Below, piece after piece: positions 1 through 30,235 of a DNA stretch of 32,000 nt. The position numbers and the translations under genes are program-made. The notes below the pieces were generated by a model. The model had not been told where the DNA came from and did not search any database. It was given only the letters and a program-made list of their open reading frames with translations. The stretch comes from Candidatus Saccharimonadota bacterium (GTDB taxonomy: Bacteria > Patescibacteriota > Patescibacteriia > 2-12-FULL-60-25): the NCBI GenBank assembly GCA_022843095.1, contig JALHOH010000002.1, positions 150,001 to 182,000 on the forward strand, in the 5' to 3' direction. Position 1 is the stretch's first letter. Each line of letters starts with the position of its first letter.

Positions 1-326
1 TCTCCCCGCTGCACAAGCTTCAGCTCGTGGACGGATGCCTCTACTTCGCGCAACGTCGCCTCCATCTGCTTCACACGTGCATGCACGAACGAAGACAACC
101 GTTCCGGCGATTCCGCCTGAAACAACTTCTTCTTCCCCTTCTCCACCGAACTCATGAGACCGACCCGCGTAAGCGATTCAATAACGGCGTAGGTGGTCAC
201 GCGAGAGACCTTCGCCTTCTTTGCTAGCACCTGCACCGTAGACGCCCCAAGCTCAAGCGCAGAAAGATACACCTGCGCTTCGCTTTCCGAAAACCCCATG
301 GAACGTAATGTTTTGACCCATTGCAT
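1..326 (-). CDS. TrmB-family winged-helix transcriptional regulator; only the N-terminal ~108 aa are in the window and the gene runs off the left edge
   Basis: Hand translation of the minus strand from ATG at 326-324 gives MQWVKTLRSMGFSESEAQVYLSALELGASTVQVLAKKAKVSRVTTYAVIESLTRVGLMSSVEKGKKKLFQAESPERL... with no stops to position 1. The LGxSExEAxVYxxLLxxG...VY..L..L...GL pattern is the typical TrmB N-terminal HTH. It is absent from the ORF track because it is truncated by the window edge. Confidence 0.7.
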   Translation of the reverse strand, partial: MQWVKTLRSMGFSESEAQVYLSALELGASTVQVLAKKAKVSRVTTYAVIESLTRVGLMSSVEKGKKKLFQAESPERLSSFVHARVKQMEATLREVEASVHELKLVQRG

Positions 327-913: not shown

Positions 914-2884
914 TCATTGGCACACCGCGCATTCTTCCGTCGCGATATCTCGCTTTTGCGTCTCCTGCGTGATCTTTGTTGCCTCAATAGGCGCGCTGGA
1001 ACGGAGGTAGTAAAGCGACTTCATTCCCAGTTTCCATGCAAGCAGGTGCACATCATGCAGATATTTCCCCGAGATCGGCGTCTGGAAGAACAGGTTGATG
1101 GACTGCGCCTGATCGATCCACGGCTGGCGATCCGCCGCCTGCTGCACGATCTCGCGCATATTCATCTCATACGCCGTTCGGAACACTTTGCGCTCTTCCT
1201 CGGACAGCCCCGGCACATTGATGACGCTCCCCTTGTCCGCGATGATCTGCTTCCACACCTCCGGCGCATTCATCCCTTTCTTCGCAAGCAGTTGATCGAG
1301 GTACTTGTTTTTGACAAGGAAACTCCCCGACAACGTCTTCTGCAAATACGCGTTCCCCGAGATGGGCTCGACGCACGGTGTCGCCTCCCCACAGATAAAC
1401 GCCGTAGACGCGGTTGGCTGGACACTCGTCACATACGTGTTGCGACGCGTGCCTCCATCCAACGGAAGTCCGCGTTCCTTCCCCAGCCGTTCGGACGCCT
1501 TCCGCGCATACGTCCCGATCCGTTCAAAGATCTGCTTGTTGATGAGCCGTGCCTGCAAACTTTCAAACGGCACCATCTTGGACATGAGATAGCCGTGGTA
1601 TCCCATCACCCCAAGCCCGATGGAACGTTCGTGCTTCACGGAATTGATGGACTTTCTATATTCCACCCCATCCGCCATCTCGCAAAACGTGTCCAAGTTG
1701 TTATCCAACGCCTTCACACACAAATAGGCGATCTCCTCGACCTCATCTTTCCATTCCTCAAACGTTTCGAGGTTCAAGTTTCCCAGACAGCACACCGCCG
1801 TACGATCGTTCGTCGTGGGCAACACGATTTCGGTGCAAAGGTTGCTTTGACGCACAAACAGCCCCTTCTCCTGATGGTGCGCCGGCACCGCCTTGTTCAC
1901 GGTATCGATAAACAAGAGATACGGCTCCCCGGTTTCTGCACGGATCGTCAGGATCTTGCGCCAGATGTCGAGCGCCGGAAGTTCCTTTGTGACGGTCTGA
2001 TAGTGCGGATCGATCAATTGATACGTCGTCCCTTCTTCCACGGCCTTCATGAACGCATCCGTCAGCACAACGCCATGGTTGATGTTCAAGCACCGACGAT
2101 CCGGGTCGCCCCCCGTCGGCTTGCGCACTTCCAAAAAGTCCTCGATGTCCGGGTGATCCACGCGAAGGTAGGCGGCCGCCGCCCCACGTCGGTGGGAATT
2201 GCGCGAGATGGCAAGCGTTTCCGAGTCCATGATCTTCAAAAACGGAATCACCCCGCTCGACTTCAATCCACTCGCCTTCAAAGGCGCATTCTGTCCACGC
2301 AGCTGCGACCAATCCGTCCCAATCCCCCCACCAAACTTCGCCAGAAAGGCGTTCTCGCGATACACGTCAAAAATCCCTTCCAACGTATCCGGGACCGTGT
2401 TCAAGAAACAGCTGATGCAAAGCCCCTTGTTCGTCCCAATGTTCATGAGCACCGGCGTTGCAGGGATAAACCAGTTCTTCGCCATGATGTCGTAGAGCTT
2501 CTGCGCAAATGCCGCATCTCCACGCGCCATCCCCGTTGCCACGCGCGCAAAAAACGTCTGCGGATTTTCACAGATCTCCCCGTTCTTATCCCGCAAGAAA
2601 TAGCGATCCCGCAGGTTTTCCATCCCGAAGTAGGTGATGTGATCCATCGCCTTTGGGTTGAACACGATGGATTCCTGAATCGCGCGCTCTGCCGTGTAGT
2701 GCGGACTGTCCCAACTCCCCTTCCCTTCGGTCTTTGCGAGGATCTCTTCCAACAAAAGATCCCGCGCCGCGACAAGATCGTTGTTTGAGAGGGCGTCGAT
2801 CACGCTTGCGTAGCGTGGCGCCTCCTTGGTTTGCATAGCTTGCATACGAAGAAAAAAATGAACGGGAGTAAAGATTAGGACCAA
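914..2884 (-). CDS. nrdA: class I ribonucleotide reductase large (alpha) subunit, lacking an N-terminal ATP-cone
   Basis: 656-aa ORF with the class I active-site motif SNLCTEI, the GGGIG loop-like FGGGIGTDWS, and a C-terminal redox pair ECAVCQ. It sits adjacent to an R2 gene. The true start is probably an internal Met (MQAMQTK, at 2845 or 2836), because the 2884 start overlaps the nrdB stop by 10 nt. Confidence 0.9.
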   Translation of the reverse strand: MVLIFTPVHFFLRMQAMQTKEAPRYASVIDALSNNDLVAARDLLLEEILAKTEGKGSWDSPHYTAERAIQESIVFNPKAMDHITYFGMENLRDRYFLRDKNGEICENPQTFFARVATGMARGDAAFAQKLYDIMAKNWFIPATPVLMNIGTNKGLCISCFLNTVPDTLEGIFDVYRENAFLAKFGGGIGTDWSQLRGQNAPLKASGLKSSGVIPFLKIMDSETLAISRNSHRRGAAAAYLRVDHPDIEDFLEVRKPTGGDPDRRCLNINHGVVLTDAFMKAVEEGTTYQLIDPHYQTVTKELPALDIWRKILTIRAETGEPYLLFIDTVNKAVPAHHQEKGLFVRQSNLCTEIVLPTTNDRTAVCCLGNLNLETFEEWKDEVEEIAYLCVKALDNNLDTFCEMADGVEYRKSINSVKHERSIGLGVMGYHGYLMSKMVPFESLQARLINKQIFERIGTYARKASERLGKERGLPLDGGTRRNTYVTSVQPTASTAFICGEATPCVEPISGNAYLQKTLSGSFLVKNKYLDQLLAKKGMNAPEVWKQIIADKGSVINVPGLSEEERKVFRTAYEMNMREIVQQAADRQPWIDQAQSINLFFQTPISGKYLHDVHLLAWKLGMKSLYYLRSSAPIEATKITQETQKRDIATEECAVCQ

Positions 2885-3840
2885 TCCAGGACCACCGCAC
2901 CTTTTGCGTATTCCGTCGCGCGATTCTCAAAGAAGTTCGTGTGCTCCTTGGCATTGATCATGACATCCAACCAATCCAACGGATTCGTGGCGTTATAGTG
3001 CTTATCCATCCCCAGATCGTTTAGCTTGCGATCGGCAATGTAGCGGATGTACGCCTTCACCTGCTCTGGCTGAAGACCGGGCACCGCCCCCATGGCAAAG
3101 CAGGTGTCGATGAATGCATCTTCCAAGCGCACCATGTCATCGCACGCAGCAAGCAACGTGGCGCGGAGCTTATCCGTCCACAGATGCTTATTCTCGCGCA
3201 TCAGGTCGCGGAAGAGATGACAGACACCCGTCGAGTGCAAGGATTCGTCACGGATGCTCCAGGTGACGATCTGCCCGACCCCCTTCAACTTCCCAAGACG
3301 CGGGAAGTTCATCAGGATCGCAAACGAGGAAAAGAGACTTACGCCTTCCATGAATCCACCGAATACCGCGAGGTTCACGGCCAGCTCTTCCACGGAATGG
3401 ATGTCGAACGTTTGGATGTACTGATACTTATTCCGCATGGATTCGTACTCCAAGAACGCGGAATACTCTTTTTCCGGCAATCCAAGCGAGTCGTTCAGGT
3501 ACGAATACGCCCACACATGAATGCTCTCCATCGCGGCAAACGCGGAAAGCATCATCTTGATCTCGGGCTTTGGAAACTGCGGGATCAATCGCGTGTTGTA
3601 GTTATTGTTCACTTCAATGTCGCCCTGCGTAAAAAAACGCAGGATGTTGTTGATGAGCGACATTTCTTGCGGCGAAAGCTTAAACCGATAATCGGAGATA
3701 TCCGACTCCATCGGCACTTCCGTCGGCAGCCAATGTGCCTGGTTCTGCTTCTTGAAATACTCAAAATATTGCGGATATTCGAACGGCCGGTAGAACTGCC
3801 GGTGCGTCAACATGGGGCACGCCCCCAGTAATTGGCTCAT
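2875..3840 (-). CDS. nrdB: class I ribonucleotide reductase small (beta, R2) subunit
   Basis: 321-aa ORF with di-metal ligand motifs: QGD...; ESIHVWAY (ExxH with Tyr at +4, the radical-tyrosine position); FMEGVSLF; and RDESLHS (ExxH). Confidence 0.9.
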   Translation of the reverse strand: MSQLLGACPMLTHRQFYRPFEYPQYFEYFKKQNQAHWLPTEVPMESDISDYRFKLSPQEMSLINNILRFFTQGDIEVNNNYNTRLIPQFPKPEIKMMLSAFAAMESIHVWAYSYLNDSLGLPEKEYSAFLEYESMRNKYQYIQTFDIHSVEELAVNLAVFGGFMEGVSLFSSFAILMNFPRLGKLKGVGQIVTWSIRDESLHSTGVCHLFRDLMRENKHLWTDKLRATLLAACDDMVRLEDAFIDTCFAMGAVPGLQPEQVKAYIRYIADRKLNDLGMDKHYNATNPLDWLDVMINAKEHTNFFENRATEYAKGAVVLDWS

Positions 3841-3861: not shown

Positions 3862-4770
3862 TTAGAGAAGCGACGGGGTCGACACGCTCGCATCAAAGGC
3901 GCCTTCTTGTTTGCCTCCAGGCACCATACCGATCGCTTGGCGTTCTTCGGGGGTCAAAAACTTCAGCGCAAGATAGCGGAAGATGTAATCCATCACGGAC
4001 GACGCTTCCGGGATATTCATGTTCTTGGTGGGACCGTTCGGCGCAAAGCGGGTGTCCGTAAACTTATTTGCAAGCACTTTGAGCGGAACGCCGTATTGGA
4101 GTCCGATCGAGATGGCCGTCGCAAAAGCGTCCATGAATCCAGAAAGTTCGGTTCCTTCTTTGCTCATTTTAAGAAAGATTTCGCCGGGCTGACCGTCATC
4201 GTACAACCCAACCGTCAAATACCCTTCTTGATCGCCCACCTGAAATTTATGCGTGAGCGCCTTGCGTTCTTCAGGCAACCGTCGGCGCCGCGCGGTGTAC
4301 GTTTCTCCGGTGTTCGTGGTGGACATAGGCTTAGGTTCAGACGTTTCAAGAACAGGGGTACTCACAGGGGGCATCGGCGGACGAACGGGTGTTGGTGCCG
4401 CAGGAGCAGGGACGCGCTTTCCGTGATAGGCCTCCTTTACCGCCAATTCTCCCCGCTCGGTCAGCACCGCATCCACGGCTGTCGCCACATCTTCCGTGGA
4501 AGGAACGCTCGCGCCATTAAATGCCGATTGCAAGCGCGTAAAGACCTCTTCCGTCACCGTACGCGCCGTGAATTCATCCGGTTTGCCCGCCGCATCAAAG
4601 GCGCGAATGATGGAGGTTTCCAAAACCAGCAGATCGAACTCCATCTCTTCTCCACCTTGGCGACGCACGCGTTTTAGCGCCGTGACGTAATTCCACAACG
4701 CGTTTGCCGCATCTGCCGCGTGTGACGCCGCTGCTCCGATCCCCGCAGAAAGACGATCCCCCTTTTTCAT
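3862..4770 (-). CDS. ATP-cone-like domain, Pro-rich linker, then a domain homologous to the C-terminal (TSCPD-type) region of class II RNR; first gene of the nrd operon
   Basis: N-terminal RVRRQGGEEMEFDLLVLETSIIRAFDAAG...STEDVATAVDAVLTERGELAVKEAYHGKR follows the ATP-cone pattern (v.KrdG..e.Fd..Ki..si..A ... i.d.Ve..L ... aY). C-terminal RLPEERKALTHKFQVGDQEGYLTVGLYDDGQPGEIFLKMSKEGTELSGFMDAFATAISIGLQYGVPLKVLANKFTDTRFAPNGPT..IPEASSVMDYIFRYLA matches my recollection of the conserved NrdJ C-terminal block (LP..R.G.T.K..VGG.K.YL.TGEY.DG.LGEIFIDMHKEG...). The start is set at the ATG of MKKGD (residue 45 of ORF 3862..4902). The GTG at 4902 and the ATG at 4797 remain possible. Confidence 0.7.
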   Translation of the reverse strand: MKKGDRLSAGIGAAASHAADAANALWNYVTALKRVRRQGGEEMEFDLLVLETSIIRAFDAAGKPDEFTARTVTEEVFTRLQSAFNGASVPSTEDVATAVDAVLTERGELAVKEAYHGKRVPAPAAPTPVRPPMPPVSTPVLETSEPKPMSTTNTGETYTARRRRLPEERKALTHKFQVGDQEGYLTVGLYDDGQPGEIFLKMSKEGTELSGFMDAFATAISIGLQYGVPLKVLANKFTDTRFAPNGPTKNMNIPEASSVMDYIFRYLALKFLTPEERQAIGMVPGGKQEGAFDASVSTPSLL

Positions 4771-4912
4771 ACGTAGATACACTTCAAAGACCAGCATGCG
4801 ACATGCCGGCACGAGAACAAAGTAAAACAAGGATGCGAAAGAAACTGGCGCGGGAGCGGCCCGACCCCGGACGGTCAGGCATTGGCGTGTGCTCCGATCC
4901 ACTCTCCTTCAG

Positions 4913-4960
4913 ACACCAGATCTTGTGGTGCACACTTTATGGTAGCACAAGATCTTGCGT
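4913..4960. promoter_or_regulatory. two tandem NrdR-box-like 16-bp imperfect palindromes upstream of the nrd operon
   Basis: Box 1 is ACACCAGATCTTGTGG (about 4913-4928). Box 2 is GCACAAGATCTTGCGT (about 4945-4960). They are 12/16 identical to each other and match 12/16 and 11/16 of the published NrdR consensus acaCwAtATaTwGtgt. Start-to-start spacing is 32 bp, about three helical turns. Confidence 0.6.
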
Positions 4961-5013: not shown

Positions 5014-5595
5014 TCAAAATCCAAGCGACAAGTTAATGGGGGGACGCGTGGTTTGGGAGGGCGGTTCAATCGGGAGTGGCAACATCTGCTTTTGCCCCTG
5101 ACGATCCATGAACGCGATCTCCCCAAACTGCAACGCATGTTCATAGACGTCTCGCGTCACCTTCACGTCCTGGAGACAATAGTCCTTCAACTTTTCGATC
5201 TCCCCCTTTTTCCAGAACTCCACGGCTTGCAACCCATGCCCAGACTTCCCAACCCCAAGCGTTGCCTGTGCCACGTCATCCAACTTGATGCGAAACCCCA
5301 ACCGCTTTTCGATCTCCGCAAGGAGGTCAAGCGACGGGAGACGGGAAAAATCGCCGGTGTAGTAGGACTGCAAACACGGGTAATCGAATCCGATGGTGTT
5401 GTAGCCCACGATCCGATCCGCACGCTCAAGGCGCGGCCAGAGCTTTGGCAAATCTTCTTCCAAGAACGCCTCAAATGTATCCGTTTCGTAAAAATACACC
5501 CCCACAAGCGACACCTGCAGCAGGGACGGGTTATACGCCCCCACATCCTGAAAGGTGTTGCGGGTTTCGATATCGAGGACAACTTCGCGTCGCAT
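5014..5595 (-). CDS. RNase H-fold 3'-5' exonuclease (DEDDy, PolB-exonuclease-like)
   Basis: ORF 5014..5652. It carries an Exo I-like VVLDIETRN, an Exo II-like IVGYNTIGFDYPCL, and an Exo III-like KDYCLQDVKVTRDVYEH (YxxxD). The start is placed at the Met of MRREVVLDIET (residue 20). Met13 (5616) or the TTG at 5652 are alternatives. Confidence 0.75.
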   Translation of the reverse strand: MRREVVLDIETRNTFQDVGAYNPSLLQVSLVGVYFYETDTFEAFLEEDLPKLWPRLERADRIVGYNTIGFDYPCLQSYYTGDFSRLPSLDLLAEIEKRLGFRIKLDDVAQATLGVGKSGHGLQAVEFWKKGEIEKLKDYCLQDVKVTRDVYEHALQFGEIAFMDRQGQKQMLPLPIEPPSQTTRPPINLSLGF

Positions 5596-5652
5596 AGGTT
5601 CGGCGCAGAGGAACATAGCATGCGCTCCGCCCGAGAGGGAGAGGGTTGTCAA

Positions 5653-6459: not shown

Positions 6460-7104
6460 TCATTCGAGACGCGTATGCGCAGGTGCAGCAACCCAGCGTG
6501 GTTGGAGAACACATTCCGGACAGAGCCGGATGCGACCGAATCGGATGGGCAGCAGACGCTCATCCAAATGGAACAGGAGAAGGGATCGCCGCGGGAGACA
6601 CATGGGCATCACCTCATGGATCACCACACCGGCGCTGCGATCGCTTGCGTCGGAAAACGCAGCGGCATCCCACGACCGAACCGAATGGGTCGTCGCCACG
6701 GCGTACGGTTGCCGATGCAGGGTGTGCTCTGCCGTGAAGGCGAGCACGAGGAGCCCGAACGCGAACGCGAGGCAGACCACAGCGATCAAGAATCCGATCA
6801 CCGTCGAAACACTGGTCGCCTGAGCGTCCATCGCGTTCGCTTCCATCTCCCGCTCCGACTGCAGAGCGGAATGCTGCTCCGCGAGCACACTGTAGTCCTC
6901 TTCGAGGGACGCGTACCGCGACTTCAGCTCAGCATTCTCTCGCTCGAGCATGGCGACGCGGTCACCCAGAACGTCCGCGGGCGATCGCCGAAACGGGCTC
7001 TGCGGACCCGTATGACCGGGTTTTGGAGTCAGCCGCAGATACCGCCACCAGGTCAGACCGTAGAGAGGAACGAGGACGGCGAGGATCGTCGAAAAAACGT
7101 GCAT
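6460..7104 (-). CDS. hypothetical membrane protein with two TM segments flanking a coiled-coil region
   Basis: The ATG at 7104 is preceded by GGAGGTG at 5-nt spacing. N-terminal TM is FSTILAVLVPLYGLTWW. A heptad-like LERENAELKSRYASLEEDYSVLAEQHSALQSEREME follows, then a second TM VIGFLIAVVCLAFAFGLLVLAF. The C-terminal ~90 aa are of unconvincing composition, hence moderate confidence. Confidence 0.5.
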   Translation of the reverse strand: MHVFSTILAVLVPLYGLTWWRYLRLTPKPGHTGPQSPFRRSPADVLGDRVAMLERENAELKSRYASLEEDYSVLAEQHSALQSEREMEANAMDAQATSVSTVIGFLIAVVCLAFAFGLLVLAFTAEHTLHRQPYAVATTHSVRSWDAAAFSDASDRSAGVVIHEVMPMCLPRRSLLLFHLDERLLPIRFGRIRLCPECVLQPRWVAAPAHTRLE

Positions 7105-10685: not shown

Positions 10686-11489
10686 TCACGCCTCTCGCTC
10701 ACCGGCATCGATGAGCCACGTTGCGTAGCATTCGATGTCGCGACGATGAACCTCTTGGATCAAATCCGCGATCTCCGCGACTACCATCACCTCGTCCAAC
10801 AAGGTGATCTCCATAAGCCACTTCGCCAACGCCAGAAACGCGTCCAGATAATCCAACGAATGAGGAGGCTCTTGGCGGGTCAGCGTCTCTAACGCCTCCC
10901 GACAGGACTCCCACGGATCCTCTCCCACACCCGTCCAAGCCGGAGGCGGTTCACAGAACACGGTCTTAAACCCCGTGCGCCGACGCTCGTGCATCGCCTC
11001 CAGCCAGGCGATCCGAGGAGGGTCATTACATGCGTCCTGATACCGCTTGCAGGCCGCGTGCACCACATCCACAAGCGTAAGCGTCGGATGCGAAGGATAG
11101 GCATCCGGTGGGATATCAAACGGAGACGCATCTAACGTCATCCGCGACCCATCTACCAAGAGGACGGGAAGGAATGCCTTCAAGAGCGCCCCTTCCTCTT
11201 GAAGTCGCGGAAGCTGTAAGGGAAACGTGATGATCTGTTTCTCCCCCTCCACTTCGAGGATCAATTCCCGCGCCTCCTGTGGCAACTTTCTGAACGTCCC
11301 AAAAAAACATTCCTCCTTTGATGCGGGGCGGCAATAATAGGCGCGCGCCTTCATCCCAGAACGAATGATCGGCCCCTTGTATCCACGCTTACGGATCACG
11401 TCGCATTCCATGGCGCGTTTCGGGATTCCCGCATAGCGCGGAAAGGCCAAGGCATGTTTCACCGCAATCAACATTTTCGCAGCATCCAT
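10686..11489 (-). CDS. hypothetical protein (267 aa), no recognisable family; last gene of the dnaE-led block
   Basis: ORF 10686..11510. The Met at 11489 is preceded by GGAGGAACAG. Composition is protein-like. It is co-directional with, and 66 nt downstream of, the GH gene. Confidence 0.6.
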   Translation of the reverse strand: MDAAKMLIAVKHALAFPRYAGIPKRAMECDVIRKRGYKGPIIRSGMKARAYYCRPASKEECFFGTFRKLPQEARELILEVEGEKQIITFPLQLPRLQEEGALLKAFLPVLLVDGSRMTLDASPFDIPPDAYPSHPTLTLVDVVHAACKRYQDACNDPPRIAWLEAMHERRRTGFKTVFCEPPPAWTGVGEDPWESCREALETLTRQEPPHSLDYLDAFLALAKWLMEITLLDEVMVVAEIADLIQEVHRRDIECYATWLIDAGEREA

Positions 11490-11555
11490 CTGTTCCTCCA
11501 TGCAGCACAAAGACCTGCTGCACCGGTATCAAAAATGGCGCGGTACGTCAATCCA

Positions 11556-27267: not shown

Positions 27268-28646
27268 ACTCCTTGGATGATCTTGGACAGCGCCTCTTTG
27301 CGAGAACGCATCGCCTCGTCCGTACGCGCTTCCAGGTTCAACCGAAGCAACGGCTCGGTATTTGAGGCACGCACACTAAACCACCAATCCTGTTCTGGAT
27401 GCGCCGGATCCCGGAACTCCATCCGAATACCATCGATGGTGATGATCTCCGTCGCGGAATCGGCATAGCGGGCATGCAGCTCCGCGATCTTCCCTTTTGG
27501 ATCATGCACCTCAAAATTGATCTCCCCGCTGTGCACGTACCGACGTAATCCCTTCCAGAGCGCCGACAATGGTTTTCCGGATTCCTGTAATCGCTTAAGC
27601 AGCAAAAGCAGGGCAAAATCTCCTGATTCACAATTCCACATCTCCTGAAAATAAAAGTGCATGGAGAGCTCCCCGCCAAACACGGCGCCCGTCTCGCGCA
27701 TCAAATGCTTGATTTTGGCATGACCAACCGGACAGAGCACCGGCGTTCCACCCGCCTCGCGTACGGCTTCTGCCACCGACCACGACGAACGCACGTCATA
27801 CAACACCTTTCCTCCCGGATGCGCACGAAGCACCTCTTCGGCAAACAGCGCCGTCAACAAATCCCCCGGAATCGGCGTGCCCGTCTCATCCACAAAGCCT
27901 ACACGATCCGCATCGCCGTCATACGCGACCCCAAGCGCACATGCATCACGCCGGACACGTGCCACGAGCGCCTCGAGCGTCTCTACATTTAATGGATTTG
28001 CCTCATGGTTCGGGAATCGTCCGTCCAATTCCCAAAACAGTGGTACCAGAGTTGCGTTTCGCACCACCTCTTTTAGGGCGGGCAGCACATGGCCATTCAT
28101 GCCGTTGCCTGCATCCACGGCGACACGCCATTCCGGAAACGCCTCCGTAAGCCGTGCTGCTTGCACCACATGTGCAACATACCGTTCCAACACCTGTGCA
28201 TCCTCCGACACCGTGCCACGATTCGGCGCATCCACAAACGCCTCCTCTCCCAGCATGGCGTCCCGGATCGCCTCCATCCCAGACCCCATCCCAACCGGAC
28301 GAACATCTCCGCGCGTCAGTTTGAACCCATTGTATTCCGCCGGATTATGAGAAGCCGTCACCATGATCCCCAATCCGTATGCCCCGTTTGCCTCACCGAC
28401 GGCAAAGTTAAACATGGGCGTCGAACACAAACCGATCCGGACCACATCCACGCCCGCGCTCGAGAGCCCATCTATCAACGCCGATTCCAATTCCGGCGAC
28501 GTCGTACGCATGTCCCGACCGACCACCATGATCTTTGTGGGATACAGATGCGCCAACACCTTCCCTAATCGACGCGCAAACGCGGCATCCAGTTCACCCG
28601 GCGCTTTTCCTCGAATATCGTAGGCCTTAAACACGGTGGAAGTCAT
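27264..28646 (-). CDS. phosphomannomutase/phosphoglucomutase (alpha-D-phosphohexomutase family)
   Basis: FKAYDIRG start region, phosphoserine loop TASHNPAEYNGFK, metal loop DGDADR, and sugar-binding loop GGELSMH. Confidence 0.9.
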   Translation of the reverse strand: MTSTVFKAYDIRGKAPGELDAAFARRLGKVLAHLYPTKIMVVGRDMRTTSPELESALIDGLSSAGVDVVRIGLCSTPMFNFAVGEANGAYGLGIMVTASHNPAEYNGFKLTRGDVRPVGMGSGMEAIRDAMLGEEAFVDAPNRGTVSEDAQVLERYVAHVVQAARLTEAFPEWRVAVDAGNGMNGHVLPALKEVVRNATLVPLFWELDGRFPNHEANPLNVETLEALVARVRRDACALGVAYDGDADRVGFVDETGTPIPGDLLTALFAEEVLRAHPGGKVLYDVRSSWSVAEAVREAGGTPVLCPVGHAKIKHLMRETGAVFGGELSMHFYFQEMWNCESGDFALLLLLKRLQESGKPLSALWKGLRRYVHSGEINFEVHDPKGKIAELHARYADSATEIITIDGIRMEFRDPAHPEQDWWFSVRASNTEPLLRLNLEARTDEAMRSRKEALSKIIQGV

Positions 28647-28672
28647 ATTTTGTGGGAAATCCTAACAGTTCG

Positions 28673-28701
28673 TTGACCCGACCGGAAGGGTTGGGTACGC
28701 T
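28673..28701 (+). promoter_or_regulatory. candidate promoter of lemA, giving a near-leaderless transcript
   Basis: TTGACC (28673-28678), a 17-bp spacer, then TACGCT (28696-28701). The ATG at 28712 is only about 10 nt downstream of the -10 element, and no SD is visible. Confidence 0.3.
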
Positions 28702-28711
28702 CTAGATATCT

Positions 28712-29266
28712 ATGAATACTACGTTCATCCTGCTGATTGTCGCCGTCGTCCTTGTGTTGTGGCTCATCAGCACCTACAACCGCTTGGTCCGTCTGAAGGT
28801 CCAAACGGATGAAGCCTGGTCTGATATCGACGTGCAGTTGAAGCGCCGGTATGACCTCATCCCGAACTTGGTGAACACGGTCAAAGGCTATGCCACGCAT
28901 GAATCCGGCGTGTTCGAAAAAGTAGCACAGGCGCGTTCCGCAGCCATGGGGGCACAGAATCCGCACGATAAAGCGGTTGCTGAAGGGATGTTGACGAACA
29001 CGTTGAAAACGCTGTTCGCCGTCGCGGAAGCCTATCCGGAACTCAAAGCCAACGAAAACTTCCTCAAACTGCAGGACGAACTTTCTGACACGGAAAACAA
29101 AATCCAGGCCAGCCGTCGCTTCTACAATGGCATGGTGCGTGAATTCAATTCCGCGTTGCTCGTGTTCCCGACCAACATTGTCGGCAACCTGCTTGGATTC
29201 AAGGCGCGCGAATTCTTTGAAATCGAAAACGAAGCGGAACGCAAAAACGTGGAGGTCAAATTCTAA
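28712..29266 (+). CDS. lemA: LemA family membrane protein
   Basis: N-terminal TM followed by YNRLVRLKVQTDEAWSDIDVQLKRRYDLIPNLV...AYPELKANENF..LQ.EL...EN.I..SRR.YN, the canonical LemA signature. Confidence 0.9.
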   Translation: MNTTFILLIVAVVLVLWLISTYNRLVRLKVQTDEAWSDIDVQLKRRYDLIPNLVNTVKGYATHESGVFEKVAQARSAAMGAQNPHDKAVAEGMLTNTLKTLFAVAEAYPELKANENFLKLQDELSDTENKIQASRRFYNGMVREFNSALLVFPTNIVGNLLGFKAREFFEIENEAERKNVEVKF

Positions 29267-29273
29267 CGACGAC

Positions 29274-29300
29274 AAAAAAGGGGTGGCTTGCCACCCCTTT
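29274..29300 (+). terminator. intergenic hairpin between lemA and htpX (weak terminator or processing/attenuation element)
   Basis: AAAAAA-GGGGTGG-cttg-CCACCCC-TTT. The U-tract is only 3 nt, so read-through into htpX is likely. Confidence 0.4.
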
Positions 29301-29332
29301 CGATCCTTGAATCGTGCGCGCCGCTCTCTTCT

Positions 29333-30235
29333 ATGTATTCCCAAATCGACTCCAATCGTCGCAAAAGCACGGTGCTTATCTCCCTGTTCATTGGGATCTT
29401 GGCGCTTGCGGGATATGCCTACGGAGAAGCCACGGGCACCGGCTCTGGCGGCCTCGTGATTGCGCTCCTCATTTCGGTTGGCATGACGTTGTTTTCTTGG
29501 TTCTTTGGGGATTCGCTGGTGCTTTGGTCTTCAGGAGCGCGACAGATCACCAAAAAAGAAGATTTTCCCTATCTCTGGAACATGGTCGAGAACCTGTGCA
29601 TCACGACAGGCCTCCCCATGCCCGCGGTGTACGTCATCGATGACCCAAGTCCCAACGCGTTTGCCACGGGTCGTGATCCAAAACATGCAAGCGTCGCCGT
29701 GACGCGTGGCCTGATCGAGCTTCTGGAAAACGAAGAGCTTGAAGGGGTCCTCGCACACGAACTGTCCCACATCAAAAACTACGACATTCGCTGGATGCTT
29801 TTGGTTGCCGTTCTTGTGGGCGCACTCACCCTCATCGGTGACATGTTCTTGCGTGGTGGATTTTTGGGACGACGTTCGAGTGACCGTGACTCAGGAAACG
29901 GAATCCTGGTTCTTCTCGGGATCGCCTTTCTTGTGCTCTCCCCCATCATCGGTCAACTCATCAAGTTCGCCATCAGCCGACAGCGCGAATATCTCGCCGA
30001 CGCTTCCGGTGCCCTCATGACCCGCTATCCGCAAGGACTTGCTAGCGCGCTGGCCAAAATCCGCGACCACGGCGTCCCCTTGCAAACCGCATCACGTGCA
30101 ACCGCACACCTTTGGATCGCGAACCCATTCGGGGCGCATGCGATTGGATCACGTGCCGCCGAACTGTTTTCCACCCATCCGCCGATTGAAAAGCGCATTG
30201 CCGCGCTCGATAAAATGTCCCGCGCAGAATCCTAA
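29333..30235 (+). CDS. htpX: M48-family zinc metalloprotease HtpX
   Basis: HELSHIKNYD (HExxH), flanking TM segments, a downstream glutamate context REYLADASGA, and a C-terminal STHPPIEKRI. The start is set at the ATG of MYSQIDSN (29333), because the 29288 start lies inside the upstream hairpin. Confidence 0.85.
   Translation: MYSQIDSNRRKSTVLISLFIGILALAGYAYGEATGTGSGGLVIALLISVGMTLFSWFFGDSLVLWSSGARQITKKEDFPYLWNMVENLCITTGLPMPAVYVIDDPSPNAFATGRDPKHASVAVTRGLIELLENEELEGVLAHELSHIKNYDIRWMLLVAVLVGALTLIGDMFLRGGFLGRRSSDRDSGNGILVLLGIAFLVLSPIIGQLIKFAISRQREYLADASGALMTRYPQGLASALAKIRDHGVPLQTASRATAHLWIANPFGAHAIGSRAAELFSTHPPIEKRIAALDKMSRAES

Follow-up and report, generated by a model that had tools for sequence, protein, structure and literature searches.

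The window analysed here, meaning the whole stretch of 32,000 nucleotides from contig JALHOH010000002.1, contains on its minus strand a class I ribonucleotide reductase (RNR) operon in which nrdB and nrdA are preceded by a gene that joins an ATP-cone to a C-terminal IscU-like (TSCPD) domain of the type found in the B12-dependent class II enzyme NrdJ. This gene was named X, for the product of the minus-strand open reading frame (ORF) at 3862..4902. As an earlier note on this DNA had it, X lies directly upstream of nrdB and is co-directional with it; the stop codon of X (TAA) is located at 3862-3864 and the ATG of nrdB at 3840, leaving a gap of 21 nt, and both genes are in one frame. Programmed read-through of the in-frame TAA was considered and rejected, as the frame relation between the two genes varies and spacings of 6, 7, 13, 18, 23 and -4 nt occurred elsewhere.

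The maximal ORF of gene X encodes 346 aa from a GTG at 4902, which is unlikely to be used as a start. Translation likely begins at either ATG 4770, giving 302 aa and an N-terminal length in agreement with the 32 homologues compared, or ATG 4797, giving 311 aa, as in P0001, an identical protein in the database. Both are located upstream of a conserved helix and a hairpin of the pattern 'V.KR.G....F...KLERSI'. A further ATG at 4644 has a strong Shine-Dalgarno-like AAGGTGGAG upstream but was rejected since initiation there would cut the cone beta-hairpin that is kept by all homologues.

From Pfam matches and homologue lengths X was assigned to 3862..4770, and inspection of its 302-aa product revealed zero cysteines. 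The AlphaFold2 (AF2) model consists of an N-terminal helix, the cone, a disordered tether, an alpha+beta domain with a predicted local distance difference test score (pLDDT) of about 90, and a disordered tail. The N-terminal helix ahead of the cone (4684..4746, H18-38 in the model) was also delimited by alignment with NrdJ N-termini and carries a motif, 'A.A.W.(F/Y)(V/I)T(S/A)(V/L)K', common to X and the NrdJ N-termini of the candidate phyla radiation (CPR). It is followed by the ATP-cone domain (4420..4671, residues 43-126 in the 311-aa numbering), which was placed by Pfam, AF2, Foldseek and a family profile, and by a Pro-rich tether (4294..4419) of about 50 residues with pLDDT below 60 and variable alignment columns, the length and sequence of which differ between homologues. 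The conserved C-terminal module (3928..4293) comprises an RRRRL..ERK..THKF motif and the Cys-free TSCPD/IscU-like domain and was delimited by Pfam, NCBIfam, AF2 and the ratio of nonsynonymous to synonymous substitution rates (dN/dS), while the tail (3865..3927) ends in a short conserved hydrophobic motif recognised in the homologue and NrdJ alignment. The three-part make-up of cone, Pro-rich linker and NrdJ-type C-terminal block described in the earlier note was thus recovered by the Pfam TSCPD match, the family-level cone and the AF2 model, as was the absence of cysteines and of a catalytic barrel, there being no match to PF02867. That no characterised protein has this architecture is in line with our literature searches, in which no paper describing a cone joined to an IscU-like domain was found. 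Nothing meaningful was returned by a PDB sequence search with the whole protein or by a comparison of the C-terminal-domain profile to PDB, and X had no match in PADLOC.

Against the Pfam TSCPD model (PF12637) X scored 46.2 bits, above the cut-off of 22.8, and residues 151-289 aligned to positions 732-870 of the 960-position NCBIfam model for B12-dependent RNR (PRK06556) with an E value of 7e-51. The likeness of this block to the NrdJ C-terminal region, noticed earlier by eye, is therefore well founded. The score against PRK06556 was 173 bits, far under its 859-bit cut-off, and this together with the missing PF02867 match identifies X as a derivative of NrdJ and not as a member of the class II RNRs. 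The TSCPD domain is defined by four conserved cysteines and its eponymous motif. Both are absent from X, where the motif position reads S-V-M-D-Y, and X in this respect differs from the stand-alone TSCPD proteins of PF12637. Most IscU-like domains of class II enzymes lack those cysteines (PMC9669993), with which the Cys-free X agrees. About 50 columns were invariant in an alignment of 33 sequences and about 50 in one of 32, and among the invariant residues are His, Asp and Glu. The domain has an alpha+beta topology, three strands and then helices, and its core was modelled with a pLDDT of about 90 when AF2 was given the domain only.

The window protein alone scored 21.3-21.6 bits against the Pfam ATP-cone model PF03477 (E 4e-4), which is below the gathering cut-off of 25.8 bits, but all 33 aligned X homologues matched this model at E<=0.01, the best at 5.9e-14, and a profile of the cone region of the family found the L. 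blandensis NrdB cone (PDB 5OLK) with an E value of 1.7e-10. A profile check of the kind the earlier note proposed thus upheld the cone for the family and fell short for the window protein taken singly. Across the cone the AF2 pLDDT was 95-97 and the model has the four-helix and beta-hairpin cone fold. In Foldseek it was matched to the cones of 5OLK, 5IM3, 9D3X, 8P28 and NrdR at a probability of 1.0 with root mean square deviations of 1.4-2.6 Å over about 90 residues, the NrdB cone of 5OLK being the best structural match. By sequence profile and structural model the cone of X is genuine despite its sub-threshold Pfam score.

The CPR class II NrdJ proteins (1051-1102 aa) matched X twice, with 25-35% identity over the helix and cone and 61-65% over the C-terminal domain. 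The full-length nrdJ of sister lineages encodes a cone, the class II core, the IscU-like domain and a zinc finger, and in two loci (L017 and L014) it lies in the gene order BipA, RNaseH-like, nrdJ, RmuC, DUF218. The RNaseH-like gene was located directly upstream of nrdJ in seven loci besides L017 (L014, L004, L006, L026, L030, L034 and L036). The gene in this position in the window (5014..5652, minus strand) encodes an RNase_H_2 or PolB-exo-like 3'-5' exonuclease according to Pfam and served as a synteny anchor; across the clade its place upstream is conserved for nrdJ and X, and for some nrdB loci without X. Between it and X are two 16-bp NrdR-box-like palindromes (4945-4960 and 4913-4928, minus strand) with starts 32 bp apart, which would form the operator of X-nrdB-nrdA. 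On the gene strand the palindromes at 4913-4928 and 4945-4960 read CCACAAGATCTGGTGT and ACGCAAGATCTTGTGC. A scan with the NrdR box consensus found just these 2 matches within the 32 kb, where 0.11 were expected, and in most loci checked such a pair was also located upstream of X, short X, nrdB without X, or nrdJ. In one locus (L099 2272-3231) the X homologue P0010 carries a CxxC..CxxC zinc-finger remnant and is followed by nrdB-nrdA; judged by its domain content it is an evolutionary intermediate between nrdJ and X.

Because of the double NrdJ match, the common slot behind the RNaseH-like gene and the common NrdR-box pair, it is strongly supported that X is the positional orthologue of nrdJ without the catalytic core and the six-Cys tail. 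Lost from nrdJ are its class II catalytic core of roughly 730 aa and the zinc finger with six cysteines at its C-terminus, and the class I nrdB-nrdA now lies directly downstream of the remnant, behind the original putative NrdR operator. Of the second reading in the earlier note, an nrdJ deleted internally and fused in frame after class I genes had arrived, the origin thus stood, on the match, the slot and the boxes. The decaying remnant that it implied did not stand, as judged by dN/dS and the lack of frameshifts and stops.

In three pairs of related loci dN/dS was 0.02-0.07 for the IscU-like domain, 0.02-0.05 for NrdB, 0.01-0.08 for NrdA and 0.14-0.22 for the cone and linker of X, and mean identities over 8 lineages were 76% (IscU-like domain), 81% (NrdB), 77% (NrdA) and 31% (cone). 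Neither a frameshift nor a stop in X was present among the related loci examined at the DNA level. X is therefore protein-coding under purifying selection, its C-terminal domain being constrained as strongly as NrdA and NrdB, and the relaxed selection and loss of linkage that would mark a decaying gene were not seen. It could be held that X is a non-functional nrdJ pseudogene, perhaps kept just as promoter, operator and translation start for nrdBA, as it derives from nrdJ with the nrdJ operator retained, parts of it were lost stepwise across lineages and some related loci have dispensed with it altogether. The constraint on the C-terminal domain, the invariant columns, the intact frames, the confident folding of both domains by AF2 from the family alignment and the in-frame fusion to NrdB kept across diverged lineages (below) effectively refute this.

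A database search returned about 70 clusters (90% identity) of 256-322-aa proteins with both Pfam domains and about 45 clusters of TSCPD-only proteins, mostly of 166-211 aa, that were 55-73% identical to the C-terminal half of X. The two-domain clusters with source names were labelled Patescibacteria, and NrdB relatives at 75-88% identity were labelled Uhrbacteria, Magasanikbacteria or Patescibacteria, so that by these labels the X family belongs to CPR bacteria of the Uhrbacteria and Magasanikbacteria type. Every X locus that was read had the order RNase_H_2-like gene, X, nrdB and nrdA, usually with RmuC and DUF218 next. In 24 of the 24 distinct X-type loci, comprising 14 with cone and IscU-like domain, 7 with the IscU-like domain only and 3 fused, nrdB adjoins X downstream and is followed by nrdA, and X and nrdB either overlap or are no more than about 25 nt apart. 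The linkage to nrdBA that the earlier note had asked about in relatives is thus present in every X locus tallied, while the converse fails, since 16 related nrdBA loci have no X. Co-directional adjacency to nrdB-nrdA behind a shared putative operator marks X as a component of the class I operon. The cone-less short X occupies the slot of X in L003, in L093-L096 and in the closed genome CP060222.1, the NrdB of which is labelled Magasanikbacteria, and the intergenic space in the cone-less loci is insufficient to hide a cone. A contig scan with the X-family alignment was dominated by NrdJ C-termini and gave a full-length X locus only in L001; it was used for NrdJ synteny. For P0001 itself no contig encoding it came up on look-up. 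Contigs L001 and L007 are titled 'uncultured Gammaproteobacteria', while L001 is syntenic with CPR loci, its neighbour proteins being about 70-80% identical, and L007 has a CPR-type nrdJ; both bins are probably mislabelled.

X was also found fused to NrdB. Among 1.84 billion representative proteins searched by profile was P0245 (599 aa), in which a Pfam scan identified ATP-cone, TSCPD and Ribonuc_red_sm domains, and a metagenome scan identified stop-free single ORFs of cone, IscU-like domain and NrdB at L103 4084-6057, L104/L105 4938-6785, L106 3-1544 and L107 4926-6785, each followed by nrdA. The DNA of the fusion loci in L103, L104 and L106 was 78-85% identical and that of L107 was more distant. 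Because the fused loci have diverged in DNA, the fusion is real and conserved across organisms, being present in at least four diverged lineages, and is not a sequencing artefact. By Rosetta-stone logic the fusion ORFs indicate the beta subunit as the partner of X, and they are the best available pointer to it. The first reading in the earlier note, a trans-acting allosteric or accessory subunit, gains indirect support from them, though it is weakened for the window copy by the substitutions in its cone and by the many relatives that have the C-terminal domain but no cone.

The explanation that best accounts for the whole, to which we assign a probability of roughly 0.6, is that X is an nrdJ remnant which the class I enzyme retains as an accessory subunit without catalytic activity, acting on or through its beta subunit. 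The Cys-free IscU-like domain would be the constant and functionally essential part, most likely serving association or oligomerisation, and the cone on its flexible tether of some 50 aa may exert ATP/dATP control of quaternary structure where its ligand residues are intact, as the L. blandensis NrdB cone does; in the window copy the cone may be no more than a module for structure or interaction. X would modulate the enzyme and not be essential for it. The C-terminal region of NrdJ termed the CRD (150-220 aa, IscU-like domain and six cysteines) is needed in NrdJd for dimer, tetramer and hexamer formation, which is stimulated by dATP or dGTP (PMC5704485, Loderer et al.), and also for electron transfer, besides affecting effector affinity (PMC5704485). 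In the enzyme that is split into NrdJa and NrdJb, the CRD is supplied in trans by NrdJb (PMC4520616, Crona et al.). A cone on NrdB drives dATP-dependent formation of beta4 (PMC5794259, Rozman Grinberg et al.). The study in which the fold was named IscU-like proposed that beta subunits captured their cones through insertion of genes into alpha genes bearing a cone (PMC9669993, Burnim et al.); most dimeric class II RNRs have an IscU-like domain, the role of which is not known (PMC9669993).

Several observations weigh against this explanation. Of 40 distinct related nrdB-nrdA loci, 16 that came from the metagenome scan and have NrdB 72-82% identical were without X (L117, L123-L126, L128, L130, L133-L138, L140, L141 and L143), so that X is not required by this enzyme type; in several of them nrdB comes straight after the RNaseH-like gene and NrdR boxes. 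At least two independent losses of the cone (L003 versus the L093/L096/L100 clade) are suggested, as is at least one complete loss of X nested among X-bearing lineages, the counts being taken from a rough neighbour-joining tree of NrdB and NrdA that carries no support values. The CRD oligomerisation data were obtained with a construct that includes the zinc finger and may not carry over to the IscU-like domain alone. The isolated C-terminal domain had no significant match in PDB by Foldseek (best E 0.27), the IscU entries 1Q48 and 2KQK giving E values of 0.6-1.4 and a template modelling (TM) score of about 0.25, which makes the IscU-likeness of the X domain, and the mechanisms drawn from it, weak. 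The cone of the window copy is degenerate as well. Its ligand-residue register was fixed by alignment to 5OLK and 5IM3, the canonical ligand residues being E. coli NrdA K9, R10, E15 and K21. At these positions the window cone has R, Q, M and V, so that three of the four canonical residues are gone (R10 to Q, E15 to M and K21 to V), and about a third of the X family has T-R..M (the 'TRSG..M' type). Nucleotide sensing by this copy of X is doubtful because the canonical ligand residues are largely substituted.

These features of the cone also bear on the strict form of the first reading in the earlier note, that X is a dedicated trans-acting ATP/dATP sensor for a cone-less class I enzyme, in which the cone does the work and the C-terminal domain is a mere anchor. 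The ATP-cone is indeed absent from the neighbouring NrdA, in which Pfam recognised PF02867 and PF00317, as the earlier note had observed, and the cone of X keeps its fold, with the two-dATP cones of 5OLK and 5IM3 as its nearest relations in structure. The K/R-R..K ligand residues are kept in about half of the X family and in all CPR NrdJ cones, and the fusions put the cone at the NrdB N-terminus as in L. blandensis (PMC5794259). The substitutions and the sub-threshold Pfam score of the window copy argue the other way, as does conservation, in which the cone falls about 2.5 times below the C-terminal domain by identity and well behind it in dN/dS. Many lineages have moreover lost the cone while their C-terminal domain stayed strongly constrained. 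We regard a dedicated sensor as distinctly less probable than an accessory subunit built around the IscU-like domain, though it is the best placed of the competing explanations.

The fold class, described as IscU-like (PMC9669993), and the position of X directly upstream of, or fused to, the metal-containing subunit could be taken to mean that X is a factor for assembly or maintenance of the NrdB cofactor, such as a metallochaperone or an IscU-descended scaffold with a role like that of NrdI or YfaE, and the invariant His, Asp and Glu could be seen in the same light. The window copy has no Cys at all and none is conserved at the IscU ligand positions family-wide, NrdJ, an enzyme with no need for the assembly of a metal cofactor, conserves identical residues, and the structural match to IscU was not significant. 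Such a role is very improbable.

The tail of X suggests another kind of partner. It reads 'STPSLL' in the window, while most homologues have 'Q-x-x-L-[LFIV]-D' there. So does CPR NrdJ (L004, L014, L017, L026, L030, L034 and L036), in which the Q-x-x-L-[LF]-D motif sits immediately before the 'FDNQSDAPAC..' zinc finger; X ends at the motif. The motif resembles the bacterial beta-sliding-clamp-binding motif QL[SD]LF. The partner of X could therefore lie outside RNR, with the domain and tail motif tethering dNTP synthesis to, for example, the replisome, or with the cone forming hetero-oligomers with NrdR that tune repression. The C-terminal domain remains close to that of NrdJ though the class II core, presumably its partner there, is gone, which suggests that a partner surface persists, and the tail motif is conserved in both proteins. 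The NrdR boxes indicate that NrdR is present in these organisms, and the Cys-free domain also occurs outside RNRs, e.g. duplicated behind a SIR2-like domain. The motif behind the clamp resemblance is nonetheless short and degenerate, and the fusion to NrdB and the strict nrdB adjacency indicate RNR itself. A partner outside RNR is on balance unlikely, and somewhat less so than a role in cofactor assembly.

On the explanation of X as an accessory subunit, a group of ultra-small CPR bacteria kept the nucleotide-sensing head and the non-catalytic tail domain of nrdJ, sometimes fused to the small subunit, after the switch to an oxygen-dependent RNR, for which the comparison of loci gives strong support. 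As read from its genes, X unites a cone with that half of the CRD which is not redox-active and is attached to the class I beta subunit genetically and, in the lineages with fused ORFs, physically. Although the class II core, the B12 chemistry and the redox cysteines are all gone, the IscU-like domain is strongly selected and is sometimes fused to a class I NrdB, which narrows the functions it could have to something independent of RNR class, for instance association, oligomerisation or regulation. A tentative extension, which we hold to be possible but well short of probable, is that the Cys-free IscU-like part of the CRD is an autonomous and portable regulatory or oligomerisation module, maybe responsive to purine dNTPs, that was exapted, once the class II core had gone, as a third, beta-bound class I subunit, either by itself or together with a tethered cone. 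The possible dNTP response is suggested because dATP and dGTP drive the oligomerisation of NrdJd that depends on the CRD. If true, this would be an unrecognised mode of class I RNR control, and the series of loci would be a living record of how a cone leaves an alpha gene and comes to sit N-terminally on beta. The series runs from nrdJ to a cone and IscU-like protein, first with and then without a zinc-finger remnant, ahead of nrdB and nrdA, and from there to an NrdB fusion, to the IscU-like domain only, or to nothing. It supplies concrete intermediates for the proposed transfer of the cone from the catalytic to the radical-generating subunit (PMC5794259, PMC9669993) and documents that within CPR bacteria a class II RNR gave way to a class I RNR while the ancestral putative NrdR operator was retained. 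X also offers a small protein of soluble size for probing the IscU-like domain.

Comparison with known systems places X between several of them. CPR NrdJ (e.g. 1074 aa in L017) has in common with X the N-terminal helix and cone, the RRRRL..THKF motif with the IscU-like domain, the Q-x-x-L-[LF] tail, the chromosomal slot and the NrdR-box pair, while X is without the PF02867 barrel and the six-Cys zinc finger of NrdJ and can neither reduce nucleotides nor shuttle electrons. NrdJb of Pseudomonas aeruginosa (PMC4520616) is, like X, a separate polypeptide with the NrdJ C-terminal region and acts in trans on a catalytic RNR subunit, but it keeps the zinc finger and a Cys pair for thiol-disulfide exchange with NrdJa, whereas X is Cys-free, has a cone and neighbours class I nrdB and nrdA. 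L. blandensis NrdBi and the Facklamia ignava Grx-cone-NrdB (PMC5794259, PMC6187632) share with X a cone outside alpha, a beta-alpha operon and a cone-less NrdA, and the fusions of L103-L107 have their cone N-terminally on NrdB, like L. blandensis. Unlike in NrdBi, the window cone is on a separate polypeptide, an IscU-like domain lies between cone and NrdB, and the ligand residues are degenerate. The window NrdB is also not closest to the NrdBi structures. Its nearest structure is PDB 9DWS (E 3e-84), to which a literature search linked no paper, followed by Chlamydia R2c structures. NrdR, which is dedicated to RNR control, is, like X, a small stand-alone cone protein, and the two cones superpose. 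NrdR has an N-terminal zinc ribbon (CxxC...CxxC) for DNA binding, whereas X has a single helix and no cysteines in that place and itself lies behind NrdR boxes.

The Cys-free domain was also observed in other settings. Two Cys-free TSCPD domains in tandem are present in P0241, P0242, P0243, P0246 and P0105, which stand alone and are 248-393 aa long, and in P0248 / P0382 (584 aa) and P0247 a SIR2-like domain is fused to two copies of the Cys-free NrdJ-type TSCPD domain. The SIR2-like part of the latter was LmuA/ThsA-like in PADLOC (E 8e-21), and these may be defence proteins that use the domain as a sensor or adaptor.

The remaining genes of the operon encode a class I small subunit and large subunit. 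The product of nrdB (2875..3840, minus strand, 321 aa) matched PF00268 with an E value of 1.7e-72 and has a Tyr at the radical position and the metal ligands D/E/H/E/E/H; its second-best NCBIfam model was a glutaredoxin-NrdB fusion family. The large-subunit gene nrdA (914..2845, minus strand) may start at TTG 2884, ATG 2845 or ATG 2836, its product matched PF02867 and PF00317 and ends in a C-terminal CxxC, and the nearest structures are those of class Id alpha (6DQW and 6DQX). About 590 nt without a called gene separate nrdA from a partial TrmB-like gene that runs off the window start (1-323, minus strand) and is 65% identical to the gene downstream of nrdA in L081. Neither an Rfam match nor a tRNA gene came out of the scans made for them across the window. 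Three ORFs of 214-274 aa (6460-7104, 10686-11510 and 28643-29344, all on the minus strand) had no Pfam match. The remaining genes of the window are those of an ordinary chromosome and include BipA, a trypsin-like protease, DnaE, PheS/PheT, an RseP-like protein, a racemase and a GlmM-like protein.

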